Shown piece by piece: positions 1 through 6,743 of a DNA stretch of 6,743 nucleotides. The translations under genes were made by a program, and so were the position numbers. The stretch's first letter is position 1; each line of letters starts with the position of its first letter. The notes beneath the pieces are model-generated. The model saw nothing but the letters and a program-made list of their open reading frames with translations, was not told the DNA's origin and made no database searches. Source of the stretch: a virus (Duplodnaviria > Heunggongvirae > Uroviricota > Caudoviricetes); IMG/VR virus record IMGVR_UViG_2548876937_000011, positions 1-6,743 of that record; one strand, written 5' to 3'.

Positions 1-419
1 CTGGGGTCGAGTCCGAGCATTGCCCCCGTGCTGCTCATCTCGGACTCCTGTTCTTTCTTGGCGGTCAGCTCCGGGTTTTTGACCATACCGCCCATTGCAC
101 CGGTAATGGTGTTGCCCTGGCTGGCAATATTTTTCACGGCACGTCGCCAGAACTCATAGGCCACGCACCACCGCTCAAGCACCGCGAGGTCAGTCACGCA
201 CAGCAGGCCCTGACCGCAGAGTTCTTTGGTTGTCAGTTGCCACATGATCGTGGCGAGAGGGAGATCTTCTTCAGCGAACCACTCCGGTGGCTCAACACCT
301 TTGATGGGCGTAAAAACAGGTTCATCTTTATTCAGGGCTCGCTTGCCGGGGTTTCCGGCCAGCGCCTTGCGCGCCGTTGGCTTGGGGCGACGCCCGGAAC
401 GCCCCGCCGTTCCAGCCAT
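1..419 (-). CDS. Phage terminase small subunit, P27 family (partial; C-terminus lies beyond the left window edge)
   Basis: Minus-strand frame is open from an ATG at 419-417 to position 1; I hand-translated the start (MAGTAGRSGRRPKPTARKAL...) and the last 60 nt (...KKEQESEMSSTGAMLGLDP) and checked for in-frame stops. The N-terminal RPKPT...GNPGKR motif is what I recall for P27-family small terminases. AGGAG lies 8 nt upstream of the ATG (complement of about 427-431). Not in the ORF track because it runs off the edge. Confidence 0.8.
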   Translation of the reverse strand, partial: MAGTAGRSGRRPKPTARKALAGNPGKRALNKDEPVFTPIKGVEPPEWFAEEDLPLATIMWQLTTKELCGQGLLCVTDLAVLERWCVAYEFWRRAVKNIASQGNTITGAMGGMVKNPELTAKKEQESEMSSTGAMLGLDP

Positions 420-544
420 ATGCGGCACTCCTGGTTAAATTTCATTTTTCGCGGGTATAAAAAAACGATGGGGCGGGCAGTCCGGAAGACGTCAGGTCAC
501 AGAGATTTGACCCGCCCCTCCCCTCAGACAGTTGAGAGTTATTA
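420..544. other. HNH-TerS intergenic region with G/C-rich inverted repeat (GGGGCGGG at 470-477, CCCGCCCC at 511-518); candidate cos/packaging site
   Basis: The inverted 8-mers, 33 bp apart, are seen directly. Their position between an HNH gene and the small terminase gene matches where HK97-like phages place cos. GGGGCGGGCAG loosely resembles the G/C-rich lambda-type cohesive end, but it is not an exact match to any cos I can recall. Confidence 0.3.
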
Positions 545-895
545 TCACTTAAGCCGTTCACGGGCCGTCTTCGCCTTATGACACGGCCAGCACAGACTCT
601 GCAGATTACTGTCGGCATCAGTGCCGCCATGTGCTTTAGGGATGATGTGGTCAACGGTTTTCGCTTCACGCGCCACACCAGCACGCAGACATAACTGACA
701 CAGGCCTTTGTCACGTTGCAGCACACGCGCGCGGATAGCGTCCCACTTAGAACCATAACCGCGCTGATGACGGGATTGTCCTGACTTGTATTGCTTCCAG
801 CCTTCGCTTTTGTGGCTTTCGCAGTAGCCTGACGGGTCTGTCGTGGTATTACGGCAGCCGCGAACGCGGCAGGATTTTGGAGTTCGAGGGGGCAT
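545..895 (-). CDS. Phage-associated HNH endonuclease (packaging-associated)
   Basis: 116-aa ORF with ATG at 895-893 and AGGA upstream. Contains a Cys-rich N-terminus and the HNH core ...DHIIPKAHGG...NLQSLCWPCH... It lies immediately upstream of the terminase small subunit gene, as in HK97-like phages. Confidence 0.9.
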   Translation of the reverse strand: MPPRTPKSCRVRGCRNTTTDPSGYCESHKSEGWKQYKSGQSRHQRGYGSKWDAIRARVLQRDKGLCQLCLRAGVAREAKTVDHIIPKAHGGTDADSNLQSLCWPCHKAKTARERLK

Positions 896-921
896 AAATA
901 TATTCCTGTTCTTTGTCCGGA

Positions 922-1194
922 CTATTTGCCTGCTGCCAGCAAAGCGTTACGGCGCATATCGATACTTCGAATCCCCGCTTTGTCAATATTGCATTGTCCC
1001 AACGCCGAAAGCAGGCTCACATTCAGATCCAGACTGGCCCCATAGGTCAGCGGCTCGGGAATGACTGGCTGGGGAGTTTCAGTAGTCAGGCTTGCTGGCA
1101 ACGGTACCGCCGGAATCGGTACGTAAACTGTTCGCGTACTTCCGCAACCGGTCAGCAGCGGCAGCAGGCACATGACGTGAAGCACAATCATCAT
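922..1194 (-). CDS. Rz1-like o-spanin (outer-membrane lipoprotein), overlapping the 3' end of the Rz gene in the +1 frame
   Basis: Internal ATG at 1194-1192 (second ATG at 1191-1189) within the 922..1422 ORF gives MMIVLHVMCLLPLLTGC...: a hydrophobic signal peptide with lipobox LLTGC, followed by a proline-rich mature region. Start choice (1194 vs 1191) is uncertain. Confidence 0.6.
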   Translation of the reverse strand: MMIVLHVMCLLPLLTGCGSTRTVYVPIPAVPLPASLTTETPQPVIPEPLTYGASLDLNVSLLSALGQCNIDKAGIRSIDMRRNALLAAGK

Positions 1195-1471
1195 CCGCAA
1201 CAGCCACTTTGATATCTTCCTGGGTTCTCTGTGACTCCAGTGCGATCTGCTGTTTTGCATGCTGGTTAGCCTCCAGTACTGTATTGACGATTTGCAGTGA
1301 TTGCAGGATGTTATTGGTAATGGCAGTTGCCAATTTGGCATTTTGTACAGCCTCATCAGCACGTTTCTTTTCGTACTGATATTTGCTGTAGTAGTGGTTG
1401 GCTGACCAGATGAAAGAACCAATGACAGTAACGAAGAAAGCAGAGATAACCAGCTTATAGCTCAACTTCAT
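1079..1471 (-). CDS. Rz-like i-spanin (inner-membrane spanin subunit)
   Basis: 130-aa ORF with ATG at 1471-1469 that overlaps the 3' end of the endolysin gene by 17 nt. It has an N-terminal transmembrane helix (LVISAFFVTVIGSFIW) followed by a charged, coiled-coil-like periplasmic region, and sits directly after the endolysin. Only weak resemblance to lambda Rz as I recall it. Confidence 0.6.
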   Translation of the reverse strand: MKLSYKLVISAFFVTVIGSFIWSANHYYSKYQYEKKRADEAVQNAKLATAITNNILQSLQIVNTVLEANQHAKQQIALESQRTQEDIKVAVADDDCASRHVPAAAADRLRKYANSLRTDSGGTVASKPDY

Positions 1472-1931
1472 TTACCACCCCACCAGCCTCTTTAAACCGG
1501 GAAATCAGGTCGCCAATTTTATGTTCATACTGACCGTAACCTGCACCAGGTAAAGACGCCCAGATATTGCTGCAACGGTCGATTGCCTGACGAATATTGC
1601 CGCGATCAATCATCGGTAAAGCGCCACGCTCTTTAATCTGCTGTAATGCCACTGAGTCCTGGCTTCTGGGAGAGAAGTCTTTCAGCTCAAGCTGCTTGCG
1701 GTAAGCATCCCACCAACGTGAAAGAAGTTGATAACGGCCTGCAGCTGTTGATTTGAGTTTCGGGTTTAGCGTGACAAGTTTGCGAGGGTGATCGGAGTAA
1801 TCAGTGAAGAGTTCGCCACCGACAATAACGTCATAACCGTGGTTACGTGTCGGTTGTCGCCCGTTATCCGTTCCTTCTGACCATGCCACCATATCGAGGA
1901 AAGCTTTACGCTGGGAATTTAGTACCTGCAT
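1455..1931 (-). CDS. R: Endolysin, lambda R-type lytic transglycosylase
   Basis: 158 aa, the same length as lambda R, and very similar to it as I recall the sequence (..NQRKAFLDM.AWSEGTDNGRQ.TRNHGYDVIVGGELFTDYSDHPRKLVTLNPKLKST.AGRYQLLSRWWDAYRKQL.LKDFSP.SQD.VALQQIKERGALPMIDRG.IRQAIDRCSNIWASLPGAGYGQ.EHK...). ATG at 1931-1929 with AGGAG upstream. Confidence 0.9.
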   Translation of the reverse strand: MQVLNSQRKAFLDMVAWSEGTDNGRQPTRNHGYDVIVGGELFTDYSDHPRKLVTLNPKLKSTAAGRYQLLSRWWDAYRKQLELKDFSPRSQDSVALQQIKERGALPMIDRGNIRQAIDRCSNIWASLPGAGYGQYEHKIGDLISRFKEAGGVVNEVEL

Positions 1932-1934
1932 AAA

Positions 1935-2261
1935 TTACTCCTTAGAGCCACCAAACTTATTACCGATTACTCTCATTGCAGCCCCACGAATAGCATCGAC
2001 CCCGATCAGCCCAACGCCGCCACCAATGGCAACAGAAAGAGATTTAGGCCATCCGACATACTCAAGAGCGGATGCAAAAGTCAGTGTCAGGGCGCCACAG
2101 AGAAAAATCTCGAGCGTTTTTCGCTTCCAGCCACCACCACCGCCAAAATAGGCAATGCGCAAGCCAGCCATAACGATCGACATAATTACTGCGCCCAGTG
2201 GTGTGTCTCCACGCCACCAGCTCTGGAACAACTCCAGCCAGGTATTTGGGTTATGAGGCAT
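1935..2261 (-). CDS. Putative holin (three predicted TM helices), not lambda S-like
   Basis: 108-aa ORF whose stop (1937-1935) lies 3 nt before the endolysin start. Three hydrophobic segments (LGAVIMSIVMAGLRIAYF, LEIFLCGALTLTFASALEYVGW, LSVAIGGGVGLIGVDAI) and a charged C-terminal tail. Position and topology fit a class I holin; I do not recognise the sequence as lambda S. Confidence 0.65.
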   Translation of the reverse strand: MPHNPNTWLELFQSWWRGDTPLGAVIMSIVMAGLRIAYFGGGGGWKRKTLEIFLCGALTLTFASALEYVGWPKSLSVAIGGGVGLIGVDAIRGAAMRVIGNKFGGSKE

Positions 2262-2412
2262 TTGTAGTTATCTCTCACCTCGCTGAAACAGCAGGTGCAA
2301 ATTGAGGGAACATCATGTACCGCAAATCAGAAGCGGAAACGTCAAAGAAGCCGAACCAATGGATAACTGCGGAATAGGCCTAGACCAACGAATCCCCAGC
2401 CCCAGAAACGAC

Positions 2413-2435
2413 AAAACCCGCTCGATGGCGGGTTT
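2413..2435 (-). terminator. Rho-independent terminator (minus-strand orientation); candidate tR'-like late terminator upstream of the holin
   Basis: Perfect inverted repeat AAACCCGC (2414-2421) / GCGGGTTT (2428-2435) with 6-nt loop. On the minus-strand RNA the stem is followed by UUUUGUCGUUUCU. On the + strand the tail is weaker (UUUAAGCU). Confidence 0.5.
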
Positions 2436-2469
2436 AAGCTGTGTGGCGAAGTAACCACTCTTAACACGA

Positions 2470-2553
2470 TACAATTTTTTTTGCGTACGCGTTAGTTTTT
2501 TATTACTTTACTTTTTGATACTATCGGCGTGGTTACAAACAAGGAGAACAGCA
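2470..2553 (+). promoter_or_regulatory. AT-rich candidate promoter region and RBS for the + strand cassette (may also hold a divergent minus-strand late promoter)
   Basis: A/T tracts and several weak -35/-10-like hexamers (e.g. TTGCGT at 2481-2486; TACTTT/TATTAC/GATACT between 2501 and 2522), none with good spacing. Strong SD AAGGAG at 2541-2546, 7 nt before the ATG at 2554. Exact promoter elements could not be fixed by eye. Confidence 0.25.
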
Positions 2554-2817
2554 ATGAGTAACTACTTGGAAGTTAAGAGAAAAATTGGTCAATATGCATG
2601 TGTTACTCGGTGGGGTTTTCCCTGTGCCGAGCGTGAAATCACTTTGATACAAAATGACATTAACTCCGCGATTCAAAGTGGTAAAGTTATAAGTCGTAGC
2701 ATGCTCCAAGGCATTATCAGCCGTCATGTTCCCAATACCCATTTCTTAATCACCGACAGTGTGGACAACTCTGATCTTAACACTGCATTAAGAATGCTGG
2801 CGCCAAAACAAAAATGA
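2554..2817 (+). CDS. Hypothetical 87-aa protein, first gene of the AT-rich cassette (function unknown)
   Basis: ATG at 2554 preceded by AAGGAG. Stop TGA at 2815-2817 overlaps the ATG of the next gene (ATGA). The ORF-track version 2515..2817 begins at a TTG with no RBS. No recognisable motif. Confidence 0.7.
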   Translation: MSNYLEVKRKIGQYACVTRWGFPCAEREITLIQNDINSAIQSGKVISRSMLQGIISRHVPNTHFLITDSVDNSDLNTALRMLAPKQK

Positions 2818-3554
2818 ATAATGATGTGTTTCAGATCAGCCCCGACGAAGTAACGTCGGAGCTGATTTCTGCAAAGGAAAGATTTTTACGTGGTATTCAG
2901 CCATACTTGTGTAATGGTATATCAAACCTTGCTGACCTACATGAAATTCAGCAGCATGCTTCAAAATATTTTAATACCGCTGTTAAATTAGTTCAAAAAG
3001 TAGATTTATGTAAACTGGATGACAATAAGACATTTGCCATTTCCTTAGTTGGAGACTGTCGAGCGGTTCTGGAAACTTATTTAGAATACTACGACATGAT
3101 GGTGTCAAACATTAAATGCCTAGAAATTGATCCAAACAATATTGTACTGTATAGCAAAGATGGTCTATCAAACCTCCAAAGAATCATTAAAAAGTATTCA
3201 TCAAAAGATATTTACACACCTATTATTGCTGAATTTGAGTCTCGAAATTTGCCAATCGATGGATTTACTATAGGCACACCAATGAATTGGAAATTAATTG
3301 TCACTGCCATTATTGGATTTTTAAGTTTTTGTATTTTTTTATCAATTACGCTGCTAATCCCAGATTTAAATGAATTTCAAAAGAAAATGATTTTCTCTTT
3401 ATATTTCATGAGCGCGGCCGTTGGAATCTCGCCATTCATTGCAAATAATATAAAGGTCAATGGGAAGATGGCATTTCGTGGTTCGGAATTCAAAGTATCT
3501 GCTGTTGGTGGTTTAGCAGCATTGATTGTTTCTTTCATCATCCAAGTAATTTAG
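2814..3554 (+). CDS. Hypothetical 246-aa membrane protein (soluble N-terminal domain plus C-terminal TM helices); candidate effector of the cassette
   Basis: ATG at 2814 overlaps the upstream stop. About 170 N-terminal residues are hydrophilic, followed by hydrophobic segments WKLIVTAIIGFLSFCIFLSITLLIP, MIFSLYFMSAAVGISPFIANNI and VSAVGGLAALIVSFIIQVI at the extreme C-terminus. Low GC. No recognisable catalytic motif. Confidence 0.75.
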   Translation: MNNDVFQISPDEVTSELISAKERFLRGIQPYLCNGISNLADLHEIQQHASKYFNTAVKLVQKVDLCKLDDNKTFAISLVGDCRAVLETYLEYYDMMVSNIKCLEIDPNNIVLYSKDGLSNLQRIIKKYSSKDIYTPIIAEFESRNLPIDGFTIGTPMNWKLIVTAIIGFLSFCIFLSITLLIPDLNEFQKKMIFSLYFMSAAVGISPFIANNIKVNGKMAFRGSEFKVSAVGGLAALIVSFIIQVI

Positions 3555-3556
3555 CA

Positions 3557-3576
3557 AAGAGGCCCTAAGGCCTCTT
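3557..3576. terminator. GC-rich hairpin between the convergent cassette and Q genes; possible bidirectional terminator
   Basis: Perfect 8-bp stem AAGAGGCC / GGCCTCTT with 4-nt loop CTAA, between the cassette stop (3552-3554) and the Q stop (3583-3581). The U-tract is weak in both orientations, so termination efficiency is uncertain. Confidence 0.5.
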
Positions 3577-3580
3577 ATAA

Positions 3581-3922
3581 TCATAGCATTGATAGCACAC
3601 CACTAACAAAACCTAATGCTGTTTGCATATCTTTTCTAATTGTCCCATCAGAACACTTACGCTTCTTCGCAATGGTGCGTAATGAAATACCAATAACAAA
3701 GTGGGCAATAACTAACTCATATTCTTCTTGTTTATATTTACGTAACCGTGCGACACAACCGTCTATCATGATACCTTCATCATCATCACACTGGAGGCGA
3801 GACTTTTTACCGTGTGGTAAAAGCCCCTTGAAGCCTGCTGCTACCGGCTGCCAGTCCACACCACTGTTGTCTGCTGCAGCCCATGCACCCCAGCGGTCCA
3901 ATACTTCATACATATCACGCAT
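3581..3922 (-). CDS. Late-gene antitermination protein Q (QuuD-like, Phage_antitermQ family)
   Basis: The N-terminus MRDMYEVLDRWGAWAA...AAGFKGL...SR.QCDDD...I.GC.ARL.K matches what I recall of E. coli QuuD-type Q proteins. The track ORF starts at a GTG (3937); I prefer the ATG at 3922-3920, which has GGAG 8 nt upstream and aligns with the QuuD N-terminus. Confidence 0.8.
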   Translation of the reverse strand: MRDMYEVLDRWGAWAAADNSGVDWQPVAAGFKGLLPHGKKSRLQCDDDEGIMIDGCVARLRKYKQEEYELVIAHFVIGISLRTIAKKRKCSDGTIRKDMQTALGFVSGVLSML

Positions 3923-3940
3923 CAACTTACTCCACAAAAA

Positions 3941-4936
3941 TCAGGCCAGCACGCCTATTGCCAGCGCACGATCGATAAAACGAAATATCAGCTCCAGCTG
4001 GGAGCCATACTTCTCTTCAAATGCCACGGTATCCGCATGCAGCTCGTCGTGATGCTTTCTGCACAAAGGCAACACAAAGAGGTCATGCGCTTTTGTACCC
4101 ATTCCACCCTGACCGTGGCCTATCAGGTGGTGGGGATCATCAGCAGGCTTTCCACAACATGCACACGGCTGTGTCTTAACCCAGCGCGTGTACTTTTCAT
4201 TAACCCAGCGGCGGCGTTTTGGGCGTAACATAAAAGACTCCGGCGACTCCGGATCCACTTTCAGCGCCAGCACCTTTTTCGCTTTATCCTGGATGATGCT
4301 GGTGGCAGGAACCGAAGGCACAAGGTCACTTTCCCGAGTGACAGACGGCACAACAGGTTTCGGTAATCTCAGTGCCTTACGGGCTGCGCTTTCAGGTAAG
4401 GCATCCGCCAGGTCATTACGAATCAGCCACCAGCACAGTTCCGGCATTGTCACGGCATGGTTATCATCAAAACCGAGATCCCGACGGACTACAGACAACA
4501 CCCAGCGGGCACAGTTATCCGTTGCCATTGATTCCAGCCGTTCCGTGAACTGATCGCGCAGCTGGTTATCGCAGTGCCAGCACAGACGGATTGCGCCCGG
4601 AGCGTGTCGCATTGTTGTCATGTTCTCGCTGTGCCAGTCGGAATGAGGCCACTGGCAGCCTTTTTCACGAAGTAACCAGCTTTCAAGACATTCCACGCCA
4701 CCAGCACGACGGATCACTGCCTCATTGCGGAACACGGCCCGAACGGCAGGATCATCCGCCAGCGGTTGTGATGCCGCCGGAACGGCACCACTGGCGAAAG
4801 ATGAATAACGTTCCGGCTCAGGCTCCAGCAGGACACGTCCCTGCATAAACAGGGGCATCAGCTCTGAACCTGGCCTGAACAATACGATCCCCATACGCGG
4901 GGCAATTTCAGGGGTCAGTAGTGCTCTCACGGTCAC
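3941..4936 (-). CDS. DUF968-family prophage protein (YdfU-like) with C-terminal HNH-like Cys/His cluster
   Basis: 331-aa ORF. C-terminus has CACCGKPADDPHHLIGHGQGGMGTKAHDLFVLPLCRKHHDELH, which I recall as typical of DUF968 proteins found upstream of Q in E. coli lambdoid prophages. Start is uncertain: GTG at 4936 (1 nt after the upstream stop) or ATG at 4894; neither has a clear SD. Confidence 0.7.
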   Translation of the reverse strand: MTVRALLTPEIAPRMGIVLFRPGSELMPLFMQGRVLLEPEPERYSSFASGAVPAASQPLADDPAVRAVFRNEAVIRRAGGVECLESWLLREKGCQWPHSDWHSENMTTMRHAPGAIRLCWHCDNQLRDQFTERLESMATDNCARWVLSVVRRDLGFDDNHAVTMPELCWWLIRNDLADALPESAARKALRLPKPVVPSVTRESDLVPSVPATSIIQDKAKKVLALKVDPESPESFMLRPKRRRWVNEKYTRWVKTQPCACCGKPADDPHHLIGHGQGGMGTKAHDLFVLPLCRKHHDELHADTVAFEEKYGSQLELIFRFIDRALAIGVLA

Positions 4937-4937
4937 C

Positions 4938-5780
4938 TCAATGAACGGTATCGAGCAGCTTTAACAGCTCAGGGAATCGGGACTCGAAGAAATGCGGCTG
5001 CGTCTCGCGCGGATTTGCGGGACTGGTGATGTTCTTGCCGAACATGCAACCTTTCGCTGTCAGCGACCAGAATTTTTTGATGTTGTTAATCGCGGTACGG
5101 CTGTATCGTTCGCGTTGTTCAACGATCCCCAGCTTCGCCATCTGGTGATATGCCTGATTAGCCGTAAGGCGGATACCATACTGTTTCAGCAGTGCACTCA
5201 GCGACAGCGTAGGACGACTTGAGCCATCAGGCGCGTCAGCAGGAGCATCAATGGCATAGCGCGGTGCCAGATTCGGTAAGCCAACAGCCTCCTGGAGTTT
5301 CTGACAGGCACCAAGCACTGAAGAGTTAGACAGGTTTAATTCCCGGCGCATAAAGTCCAGCAGAATCACACCAGCCTGCATCTTGTCAGCAGCCTGTCCG
5401 GATAATTTTTCCGGTGCGCTGGTTACCATGTCGAAAGTACGGATCACCTTCAGATGGAATGACGGGCTGATCCACATTGCATAGGCATACACCAGTTCCT
5501 TGCAGACATACGTTCCTCCATTCCGCCCTTCTATTTTACTTACTGGTTTACTACCCAAATTTTGGGTAGTTTCATTGAATGAACCGACACCCAAATTTTG
5601 GGTATCGATCAATTCCTGAACCAGCTCAGTAATCTGTTGGCTGGAAAGAAACTTTCCCGGCTCCTTAGTTCTGGCATTTGCACCAGATGCAACAGCAGCC
5701 CGATGCAGATCGTTCAGGCTGTAACGCCCATAAGCATCACGACGAACTTCAATACCATCAATGACCATCAGATTATTCAT
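4938..5780 (-). CDS. KilA-N domain protein with C-terminal KilAC/ANT-like domain (phage antirepressor-like)
   Basis: N-terminus MNNLMVIDGIEVRRDAYGRYSLNDLHRAA...KFL has the KilA-N signature. The track ORF starts at GTG 5813; I prefer ATG 5780-5778, which is preceded by AAGAGGAGAAA with 8-nt spacing and does not overlap rusA. Confidence 0.8.
   Translation of the reverse strand: MNNLMVIDGIEVRRDAYGRYSLNDLHRAAVASGANARTKEPGKFLSSQQITELVQELIDTQNLGVGSFNETTQNLGSKPVSKIEGRNGGTYVCKELVYAYAMWISPSFHLKVIRTFDMVTSAPEKLSGQAADKMQAGVILLDFMRRELNLSNSSVLGACQKLQEAVGLPNLAPRYAIDAPADAPDGSSRPTLSLSALLKQYGIRLTANQAYHQMAKLGIVEQRERYSRTAINNIKKFWSLTAKGCMFGKNITSPANPRETQPHFFESRFPELLKLLDTVH
5553..5604. repeat. Two copies of a 16-nt near-palindrome ACCCAAATTTTGGGTA (5553-5568 and 5589-5604) inside the KilA-N coding sequence
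   Basis: Exact 16-nt direct repeat 36 bp apart, each copy itself an inverted repeat (ACCCAAA / TTTGGGT). At the protein level it produces a duplicated TQNLG peptide. Confidence 0.8.
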
Positions 5781-5799
5781 ACTTCGTTTCTCCTCTTGA

Positions 5800-6189
5800 T
5801 CAGGCGGCTGCACCCGCCGTTTTCTCGTACTTACTGATAGTGATCTCGACCTTCCCTTCCGGGATAACCGGTCCCCACTCCACCAGCATTCTTTTCACCT
5901 GACTGTCGTCTTCCCACACACCCGCGTGGGTCAGGGCGTCAAACAGCGCCTTGTTATAGTTGTCCAGATCGCGGATCCGGTTATCCGGAGGAAACAACAC
6001 GATCTCCACTGAAGCAGGTGCCGACGTTGGTTTCGGCAGACGACGTAACTGCTCAACTATTGCTGCACACGCCGCGCTCTGGAATTTGCGCCCCGCCGCG
6101 CTTATCAGGTTCTTACCTGCAAACGCCCCTTTGTTGGGGTGTCGCCAGTACGTGTTCACGCTGGGCGGAAAAGGCAGGATCAGCTTCAT
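5800..6189 (-). CDS. rusA: Holliday junction resolvase RusA
   Basis: 129-aa ORF with the RusA signature region ...RIRDLDNYNKALFDALTHAGVWEDDSQV... ATG at 6189-6187 with GGGAGA upstream. Its start overlaps the stop of the upstream methyltransferase gene (ATGA). Confidence 0.85.
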   Translation of the reverse strand: MKLILPFPPSVNTYWRHPNKGAFAGKNLISAAGRKFQSAACAAIVEQLRRLPKPTSAPASVEIVLFPPDNRIRDLDNYNKALFDALTHAGVWEDDSQVKRMLVEWGPVIPEGKVEITISKYEKTAGAAA

Positions 6190-6743
6190 GCCACTATCTC
6201 CCTGACCAGCCGTTCTGCCTGCTGGCGAACCTGCGCCAGAAACGCCTCACCACATGCCTCAAGTTCATCGCGCCCGATGTAGCTGATTGCCGGTCCCTTC
6301 CAGGTCTTGTCGAAAACAGCAATAGCACCAGCGAAGAAAGCGCCTGTCGGCACCTGCTTCTCGTCCTTCGGGATAAACCAGGCAGGCAGTTCAAAACCAA
6401 TACGCCCGCGAATAAAAGCAATATGATCTGCATCTTCCGGCCACCACACTTCGCTGGTGGCAGCTTTGATCAGGAAAACATAGCGTCCGCCCTTATCACG
6501 CATGGCACTGGCATGCTTCATGATGTAACGCATGCCGGTGATGTATTGCCCTTCATGCTGACTGGCGCGGCTGTATGGGGGATTACCAAAGGCAGCCCCT
6601 TTAAGCTCCGCAAGACGTTCTGACCAGTCATGCGCCAGCGCGTTGTCTTCCGCAGTGTAATAAGCGGCACATTTGGCGTTATCACCATCAGTGAACAGAT
6701 CCAGAACAAACGGGCCAAACAGGGTGTTAATTCCCCAGAAAAT
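6186..6743 (-). CDS. Phage N6-adenine DNA methyltransferase (Dam-like; partial, N-terminus beyond the right window edge)
   Basis: The minus-strand frame of the 6186..6533 ORF stays open to position 6743 (hand-translated, no stop). It reads ...DLFTDGDNAKCAAYYTAEDNALAHDWSERLAELKGAAFGNPPYSRASQHEGQYITGMRYIMKH... The NPPY tetrapeptide is the catalytic motif IV of N6-adenine methyltransferases. Confidence 0.75.
   Translation of the reverse strand: MFWGINTLFGPFVLDLFTDGDNAKCAAYYTAEDNALAHDWSERLAELKGAAFGNPPYSRASQHEGQYITGMRYIMKHASAMRDKGGRYVFLIKAATSEVWWPEDADHIAFIRGRIGFELPAWFIPKDEKQVPTGAFFAGAIAVFDKTWKGPAISYIGRDELEACGEAFLAQVRQQAERLVREIVA

Follow-up and report, generated by a model that had tools for sequence, protein, structure and literature searches.

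What is a small pair of genes doing between the holin gene and the antiterminator gene of a lambdoid prophage, on the strand opposite to the late region in which it lies? The question is raised by the virus record IMGVR_UViG_2548876937_000011 (Caudoviricetes), of which positions 1 to 6,743, referred to here as the window, were analyzed. The window spans the genes for late control and lysis of a lambdoid Escherichia coli prophage, which are read on the − strand. Flanked by the holin gene on one side and the antiterminator gene Q on the other is a + strand operon of two overlapping genes, referred to here as the cassette, in which open reading frame 1 (ORF1, 2554-2817) codes for a small protein of 87 amino acids (aa) and ORF2 (2814-3554) for an inner-membrane protein of 246 aa. 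A sequence-only reading of the window had proposed that the pair is an undescribed, horizontally acquired prophage defence or exclusion module. Judged from its context, an anti-phage function of one kind or another is likely, and it is predicted, with somewhat less assurance, that the cassette is an anti-phage module of two genes, self-contained and horizontally mobile, which the prophage has as cargo. This reading is based on the hotspot behavior of the slot, the presence of defence genes beside the module in unrelated elements, the score given by an independent classifier, and published base rates.

The interval between Q and S of lambdoid phages is a long-known moron site, which also carries toxins and porins. 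The location of stx in this interval has been discussed previously (PMC7547250). Prophages sharing the holin, Q and DUF968 genes of the window (loci L002-L005 and L023-L029) were compared, and the same Q and holin flanks were found with varied cargo, or with none, at the exact position of the cassette, as had been suggested from the sequence. At least nine alternative cargos were seen, most of them unannotated and nearly all transcribed towards Q. They include the Kiwa system (L002; PADLOC KwaA 2e-83, KwaB 2e-150), a protein with a TIR domain and a transmembrane (TM) segment (1e-57), a TIGR04255 protein accompanied by two unannotated proteins, a 313 + 149-aa pair, a 308 + 182-aa pair that is also present in phage mEp460, single proteins of 339 and 205 aa and, in phage SfII, a gene matching the PADLOC candidate PDC-M53A (2e-32), and in phage 1720a-02 the slot is empty. 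The site where the Q stop codon meets the conserved late segment behaves as a cargo hotspot, and part of the cargo is established defence. In the literature searched, no description of the junction between Q and the late promoter pR' as a defence hotspot was found. The full cassette was detected in 21 of 5,426 complete Escherichia coli genomes, whereas its flanks occur in thousands; together with its AT-richness relative to the host, this agrees with the proposal that it is foreign cargo acquired horizontally. Since related prophages carry known defence systems in this slot, a defence role for the cassette is probable.

The module was also found in other settings. In Klebsiella and Citrobacter a PF06530 Q gene is again the immediate neighbour of the pair, but the holin and endolysin, or else the replication module, are of another kind. 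A P2-like phage carries an 85 + 233-aa version (hhalign probability 100%, E = 2e-55), located between the tail-fibre genes and the sheath gene FI and opposite in strand to the tail genes, at an accessory locus which we take to be that of the T5 exclusion gene (Z/fun) in P2. A defence hotspot within the P2 tail genes has been reported (PMC13586616). The hotspot described by Rousset et al. (2022) was considered for the P2-like pair and rejected, as that hotspot is the old/tin locus between gpA and gpQ. In several Pseudomonas species the pair is found in integrase-bearing islands, between the beta/cII genes of gop-beta-cII (3e-22 and 2.5e-37) and Gabija (GajA 5e-205, GajB 1e-137), with Abi genes near, and a second, different arrangement of the pair beside Gabija was also observed. 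On a Pseudomonas aeruginosa plasmid (CP137918, L037) the large gene adjoins Hachiman (HamA 8e-131, HamB 7e-285), and one further copy of the module lies near cas1. The informative neighbours of the module are defence genes. As recognised defence systems alternate between the conserved flanks of the cassette, and as the module lies beside defence genes in unrelated elements, it falls on both counts into the operational class of defence-hotspot cargo. The hosts of the module are E. coli, Klebsiella, Salmonella, Citrobacter, Enterobacter and Pseudomonas, from gut, plant-associated, soil and metagenomic sources, and in every genus examined the cassette is AT-rich relative to its host. On the P. 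aeruginosa plasmid, an insertion sequence (IS) of the IS30 family truncates the small partner (L037 4700-4850), leaving the C-terminal remnant …GIDQADIQALLAIA… and an intact large gene, and the Hachiman genes are themselves interrupted by IS copies.

A relative of ORF2 has been listed before. The 243-aa protein WP_126677159.1, which shares a 90% cluster with ORF2 (cluster WP_053886465.1), was listed by DeWeirdt, Mahoney & Laub (Science 2026, Table S10) as a "Predicted novel defense gene" with a DefensePredictor log-odds of 7.88, where the stringent cutoff is 4. The word "undescribed" is therefore not entirely apt, since a near-identical ORF2 was already in that table; the entry differs from the present description in being a single-gene score given without name, partner gene, context or experiment. 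It was reported that 45% of the tested DefensePredictor units protected against phage (PMC13092281), and that among random unknown loci in P4 hotspots six of eight were protective against phage (PMC13586616). The latter study does not include the pair among its validated systems, and the RefSeq accessions of the window had no mention in the searchable literature. Within those parts of the DeWeirdt et al. material that were accessible, no matching two-gene unit appeared in the validated first part of Table S6; WP_126677159.1, the cluster representative and the window accessions were not found in the other tables searched, nor were the accessions of the other unannotated slot cargos found in the DefensePredictor tables.

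The sequence-only reading had recognised neither protein as a member of a known family, and this was upheld by every search that was run. ORF1 and ORF2 have no match in Pfam or NCBIfam. The same is true of 46 relatives of ORF2, none of which shares any PADLOC match. Against the 5,027 models of PADLOC-DB v2.0.0, among which are PD-, PDC- and Rousset systems, ORF1 had no match and ORF2 matched only DndH, a noise-level hit (E = 0.003) that covers 59 residues of a model with 1,686 positions. When PDB sequences were searched with profiles of both proteins, nothing informative was returned, and Foldseek against viral structures returned nothing at E <= 0.001. In libraries of phage proteins, ORF1 matched PHROG 31842 and ORF2 PHROG 5814, both with function unassigned, and neither ORF matched any exclusion-annotated PHROG. 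Neither ORF matched a holin, antiholin or spanin family in Pfam, where the true holin of the window scores 9.8e-25. Of the hallmarks of type II toxin-antitoxin systems, neither an antitoxin fold (helix-turn-helix, ribbon-helix-helix or AbrB) nor a known toxin family was found. Among newly named systems, Crouga, Bandua, Aernus, Toga, Reve and Hailong were considered and none fits the pair. RefSeq annotates the same two coding sequences (CDSs), both as hypothetical proteins.

Composition and homology set the cassette apart from the phage genes around it. The GC content is 40.9% for ORF1, 34.3% for ORF2 and 36.5% for positions 2506-3580, against 52.5% in the flanks on each side (z = -10.5 under a binomial model), and almost all 200-nucleotide (nt) windows below 40% GC fall inside 2401-3800. 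The AT-richness noted at first sight was therefore borne out; the range of 27-35% GC given for the two genes fits ORF2, but ORF1 is nearer 41%. A strong Shine-Dalgarno sequence, AAGGAG (2541-2546, + strand), precedes the ATG of ORF1 by 7 nt, and the ATGA start/stop overlap at 2814-2817 (+ strand) couples the translation of ORF2, which has no separate Shine-Dalgarno sequence of its own, to that of ORF1; both elements are present as had been claimed. When compared with prophages carrying other cargo, homology breaks off on the left at 2488-2509 across seven loci (at 2501-2504 in five of the seven) and on the right at 3608/3609, inside Q, or, where a locus has the other Q variant, at 3821. The exchangeable cargo segment accordingly extends from about 2502 to 3608, and the module so delimited includes the final ~9 codons of Q. 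As the right breakpoint lies inside Q, cargo swaps take the 3' end of Q along. In every comparison of the window with the Klebsiella and Citrobacter versions, the proportion of nonsynonymous differences (pN) was well below that of synonymous differences (pS) for both ORFs, with pN ~0.30 and pS ~0.78 for ORF2. Omega, quoted only where synonymous divergence (dS) is unsaturated, was 0.10-0.46 overall, with 0.10-0.46 for ORF1 and ~0.22 for the closest pair of ORF2 sequences. By these sequence comparisons, both ORFs are real genes under purifying selection.

ORF1 is a soluble, basic protein with an isoelectric point (pI) of 9.4, and its AlphaFold2 model consists of four helices, with a predicted local distance difference test score (pLDDT) of 80. 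Its homologues form eight 90%-identity clusters among 5.8 billion proteins, all from Enterobacteriaceae and all hypothetical. The C-terminal motif of ORF1, (S/G)xDNSDLNTAL, is invariant also across the P2-like, Pseudomonas and metagenome members, and all small partners share the C-terminal pattern D-N-(S/K)-D-x-(N/S)-T-x-L, which heads the last helix of the ORF1 model. The Pseudomonas small partner is homologous to ORF1 (hhalign probability 92.5%). The close relatives of ORF2 form seven 90%-identity clusters in the same protein collection, again all hypothetical and all from Enterobacteriaceae, and an exhaustive profile search returned 79 representative relatives, mostly of 245-270 aa and matching end to end. 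ORF2 has three hydrophobic helices, at about residues 159-181, 187-209 and 230-245, behind an acidic N-terminal helical domain of ~155 aa (N-domain pI 5.0) that is predicted to be cytoplasmic from hydropathy and charge distribution (positive-inside rule). A confident helical bundle was modelled for residues ~10-143, with pLDDT 84-92 over most of that range. Conserved in the N-terminal part are the motifs YFN (F53), (A/G)(E/D)C (C82) and (M/L)QR(M/I) (Q122, R123), followed by LPxxGF (L146, P147, G150, F151), and Q189, G211 and G232 are conserved in the C-terminal hydrophobic part.

At every readable locus, one or two small genes coding for DNSD-motif proteins of 77-87 aa precede the large gene. 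In Klebsiella, Citrobacter and Pseudomonas the start and stop codons still overlap by 4 nt, and in the distant members, the P2-like one included, the overlap is 1 nt or a short gap separates the genes. As partner, motif and overlap were retained while the large protein fell to 20-25% identity, the pair is regarded as a unit. A single small gene is present in the enterobacterial and P2-like loci, and in many non-enterobacterial loci (L016, L030, L032 and L039) there are two small paralogues in tandem, which share the DNSD motif but have diverged in their N-terminal parts. The large protein also exists in forms with altered C-terminal ends. In one relative (P0090) the N-terminal domain, with all its motifs, is followed by one TM helix and an alpha/beta-hydrolase domain (serine motif HSMGG) that replaces the three-helix module; in another (P0070) the three-helix module is kept and a C-terminal DUF3298 domain is added, and two more (P0056 and P0072) have an extra unannotated domain of ~170 aa. 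Both variants with readable loci, P0090 and P0070 (L038, L039), retain the small DNSD-motif partner. From the topology, the added C-terminal domains are predicted to face the periplasm. The exchange of C-terminal parts behind a constant N-terminal domain and partner suggests a sensor-effector design, and it is mainly because of the exchange against an enzyme domain that the membrane module is read as the effector.

Does the cassette have its own transcription signals? Both hairpins that were said to bracket it exist, and the one on the right, AAGAGGCC-CTAA-GGCCTCTT (3557-3576; perfect 8-bp stem 3557-3564/3569-3576, -13.4 kcal/mol), is the cassette's own. It is located between the convergent stop codons of ORF2 and Q and has no T-run, and it is probably a two-way transcription stop. 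In the Klebsiella and Citrobacter cassettes a hairpin is retained at this position with a different stem sequence, and most of the other cargos at the slot bring their own hairpin against the Q stop. The left hairpin (perfect 8-bp stem 2414-2421/2428-2435) turned out to be a phage element: it is not part of the cassette, because it sits within a segment (2413-2505, − strand) that is conserved whatever the cargo and is context rather than cargo. This segment is common to about 1,000 E. coli genomes and to SfII, SfIV, phiP27, mEp460 and some Stx2a phages, and in phage 1720a-02, which has no cargo, it adjoins the Q stop codon without a gap. Read on the − strand, the hairpin at 2435-2414 is followed by a T-rich tail and looks terminator-like. 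The distal part of the segment occurs in two versions, GCGTACGCGTTAG and GCGGACCGCG, that co-vary with two C-terminal variants of Q. In lambdoid phages, pR' lies beside Q and a terminator shortly downstream gives rise to a short RNA (PMC7547250). By analogy, the segment is probably the late promoter with the Q-utilisation site and the terminator tR', which would probably yield a terminated RNA of ~50 nt. The prophage small RNA svsR was considered and dropped, since svsR is encoded at cI and not at this site. With 2413-2505 as the late promoter, the cargo would lie upstream of it and outside the late transcript.

On the cassette side of this segment, a candidate extended -10 element, TGATACTAT (2516-2524, + strand), was read by eye, with an implied transcription start near 2531. 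An element of the form TTTTTG-n-TAnnnT is found at the same distance, ~30 nt upstream of ORF1, in Klebsiella (TGTTATAGT) and Citrobacter (TGATAAAGT), the proteins of the three cassettes being only ~45-58% identical. Together with the 3' hairpin, the conserved promoter-like element would fit an independent transcription unit, a point that is suggestive only.

Three known arrangements resemble the cassette. In sister prophages the very slot of the cassette is taken by Kiwa, which has an identical orientation and is likewise a two-gene operon with one membrane protein, but it consists of a 173-aa membrane protein (KwaA) and a 294-aa protein (KwaB), compared to the 87-aa protein and 246-aa membrane protein of the cassette, and its gene order differs. 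The PADLOC models of KwaA and KwaB, which match the Kiwa cargo of L002 strongly, have no match to ORF1 or ORF2, and ORF2 was ruled out as a KwaA by family comparison (hhalign probability 0.04%). Lambda RexAB is a two-gene lambdoid prophage operon, independent of the lytic genes, that pairs a soluble with a polytopic inner-membrane protein, and the logic proposed for it would also suit the cassette: a cytosolic sensor opens the membrane component, the membrane potential is lost and the infection is aborted. The sizes are reversed, however, in that the small protein of the cassette is the soluble one and its membrane protein bears a 155-aa cytosolic domain, and RexAB lies in the immunity region, as opposed to the Q-pR' junction. 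Homology to either Rex protein was ruled out (hhalign 0.2% for the ORF2 family against RexB and 0.1% against RexA; 0.2% for the ORF1 family against RexA). The third arrangement is that of the P2/P4 hotspot systems (Rousset et al. 2022), which are small swappable operons (hydrolase + TM, reverse transcriptase + TM, TIR + 2TM/1TM), include a bare TM protein, and whose TM proteins were interpreted as suicide effectors (PMC9122126). The Pseudomonas pair adjoins the beta/cII genes of gop-beta-cII, but no model of these systems matches the pair and the slot of the cassette is the lambdoid Q-pR' junction.

A mechanism can be tentatively outlined, and as a whole it is somewhat more likely to be wrong than right. 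The operon would be transcribed in the lysogen from its own extended -10 promoter. The acidic cytosolic domain of ORF2 and the basic ORF1, docked via the DNSDLNTAL helix, would form a sensing and regulatory unit, with the C-terminal three-helix membrane module as the effector. Upon infection by another phage, the membrane module would oligomerise and make the inner membrane leaky, so that phage growth is stopped (abortive infection) or entry is blocked. As the pair has no characterised relative, this scheme is drawn from its architecture.

Several observations weigh against the anti-phage reading or against parts of this scheme. The pair has no homology or fold similarity to characterised defence proteins. 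No phage phenotype of the pair was found in the literature searched, as far as its text was accessible, and the accessions of the pair did not appear in the accessible part of the list of 94 predicted units that DeWeirdt et al. had tested. The adjacency to Gabija is confined to Pseudomonas and may stem from a single linkage event. One metagenome contig (L030) carries the module in an ordinary chromosomal setting, where the sole suggestive neighbour is a Fic-domain gene with no PADLOC match. The membrane part of ORF2 was poorly modelled (AlphaFold2 pLDDT 30-75 for residues 150-246), and in place of an effector the membrane module could act as an anchor or, like KwaA in Kiwa, as a sensor; a Kiwa-like arrangement with the membrane protein as sensor is an alternative to the scheme given above. 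Finally, a σ70 consensus scan called no + strand promoter before ORF1. The proposal that the cassette is expressed from its own promoter thus has on its side a TGnTAnnnT extended -10 element conserved in three diverged cassettes, but the scan missed it.

Other explanations of the pair were weighed against the anti-phage module. The nearest of them is envelope superinfection exclusion, in which ORF2 would block DNA entry in the manner of P22 SieA, T4 Imm or HK97 gp15, with ORF1 as a helper, and the cell would survive. ORF2 is indeed an inner-membrane protein made by a prophage, the P2-like pair occupies a tail-gene accessory locus that is presumably Z/fun in P2, and the predicted periplasmic domains of the relatives (DUF3298 and the ~170-aa domain) suit envelope sensing or blocking. 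The known proteins of this type are, however, single genes, whereas here both a partner protein in the cytosol and a large cytosolic domain are conserved throughout; the replacement of the TM module by an esterase resembles effector exchange, and no exclusion-annotated PHROG was matched. We regard exclusion as quite unlikely, and it is a sub-type of the favored explanation rather than a contradiction of it. It has even less in its favor, in our judgement, that the pair is a toxin-antitoxin or addiction module stabilising a mobile element, with ORF2 as a membrane toxin and ORF1 as an unstable antitoxin encoded first. The small gene does come first, translation is coupled, the two proteins have opposite charges, and the module is found on many kinds of mobile element, but the type II hallmarks looked for are lacking. 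The single hint as to whether the large protein is lethal without its partner comes from the plasmid copy, in which IS30 cuts the small gene and the large gene is intact.

A role outside of conflicts between phages must also be considered. Lysogenic-conversion cargo, acting in host physiology, stress tolerance or virulence, would be in keeping with the toxins and porins that the Q-to-S interval also carries and with a pair that has no enzymatic motif. Such a role is improbable, as members of the family come from gut Enterobacteriaceae, from plant-associated and soil Pseudomonas and from metagenomes, its informative neighbours are all defence genes, and it was given a high score by a defence-specific classifier. 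The position beside the holin gene could also suggest a lysis or late-gene accessory, such as an antiholin or a regulator of lysis timing, since holin, endolysin and spanin genes are near and one of the products is a small membrane protein. The cassette is, however, read from the other strand and lies upstream of what is probably the late promoter, most prophages that share its lysis genes lack it, the Klebsiella copy has another holin and endolysin beside it, the module is also found on non-phage islands and a plasmid, and there is no match to a holin or antiholin family. By this distribution a core phage function is excluded and a lysis role is very unlikely, to a degree that we give it hardly any weight.

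The genes around the cassette are read on the − strand. They comprise an HNH endonuclease (545-895), a spanin pair (1079-1471 with an embedded lipoprotein frame), an endolysin (1455-1931), the holin S of the lambda family, which is the first late gene (1935-2261; PF05106, E = 9.8e-25, and so annotated in RefSeq), and antiterminator Q (3581-3922; PF06530, E = 3.4e-45), a RefSeq CDS that starts with the ATG at 3922 after GGAG and is convergent with the cassette. Just upstream of Q lies a gene for a DUF968 protein (3941-4936), which also matches the HNH-type nuclease model PF16784 (4e-6), is kept beside Q in E. coli and Klebsiella prophages of matching type, and is labelled in one phage record as a second "antitermination protein Q". 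KilA-N protein and RusA genes are also in the window, and over the whole window Rfam had no match at E <= 1. Strain 720632 carries a near-identical prophage, with a P27-type terminase and myovirus-type tail genes, that adjoins a dusA fragment. This prophage is otherwise ~99% identical to the window, and three differences were seen. It has a GrlR-family regulator gene between the Rz1-like and HNH endonuclease genes (L001 18025-18667) that is absent in the window at ~900-1066, which marks a second variable site; a LexA-family regulator gene between RusA and an adenine methyltransferase (L001 25067-25393) is missing at ~6186-6189 of the window; and an IS3 element splits its KilA-N gene, the window copy of which (4938-5813) is intact.

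What the cassette may mean for prophage biology depends on how far the anti-phage reading is taken. A wider possibility, which we consider unlikely, is that the pair represents a new signalling family, in which a portable trigger, made of the ~155-aa helical domain and one or two DNSD proteins of 85-87 aa, is coupled to interchangeable membrane and periplasmic modules. If this were true, a cytosolic event would be turned into an action at the envelope, or an event at the envelope during DNA injection would be sensed and reported inward, by parts unrelated to any known immune protein. On this view the Q-pR' junction would serve as a defence hotspot in general and, since the cargo is convergent with Q, it is proposed that the cargo would be silenced by read-through upon prophage induction. 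More modestly, the pair is a probable uncharacterised addition to the known class of hotspot-borne prophage defence cargo. Hundreds of systems have already been predicted for E. coli alone, and a further candidate is of use but no surprise. Its well-defined slot, the motif conserved in the partner and the variants with a swapped effector make it a tractable target. If the pair protects, it would add a defence family with no relative among known systems that, at ~1 kb, could be quickly dissected, and its natural variants, with the esterase swap and the periplasmic extensions, would help to tell the sensing part from the killing part. The precise slot in a common class of lambdoid prophages may, in addition, serve as a cheap hunting ground for such systems, as the P2/P4 hotspots have proved to be.

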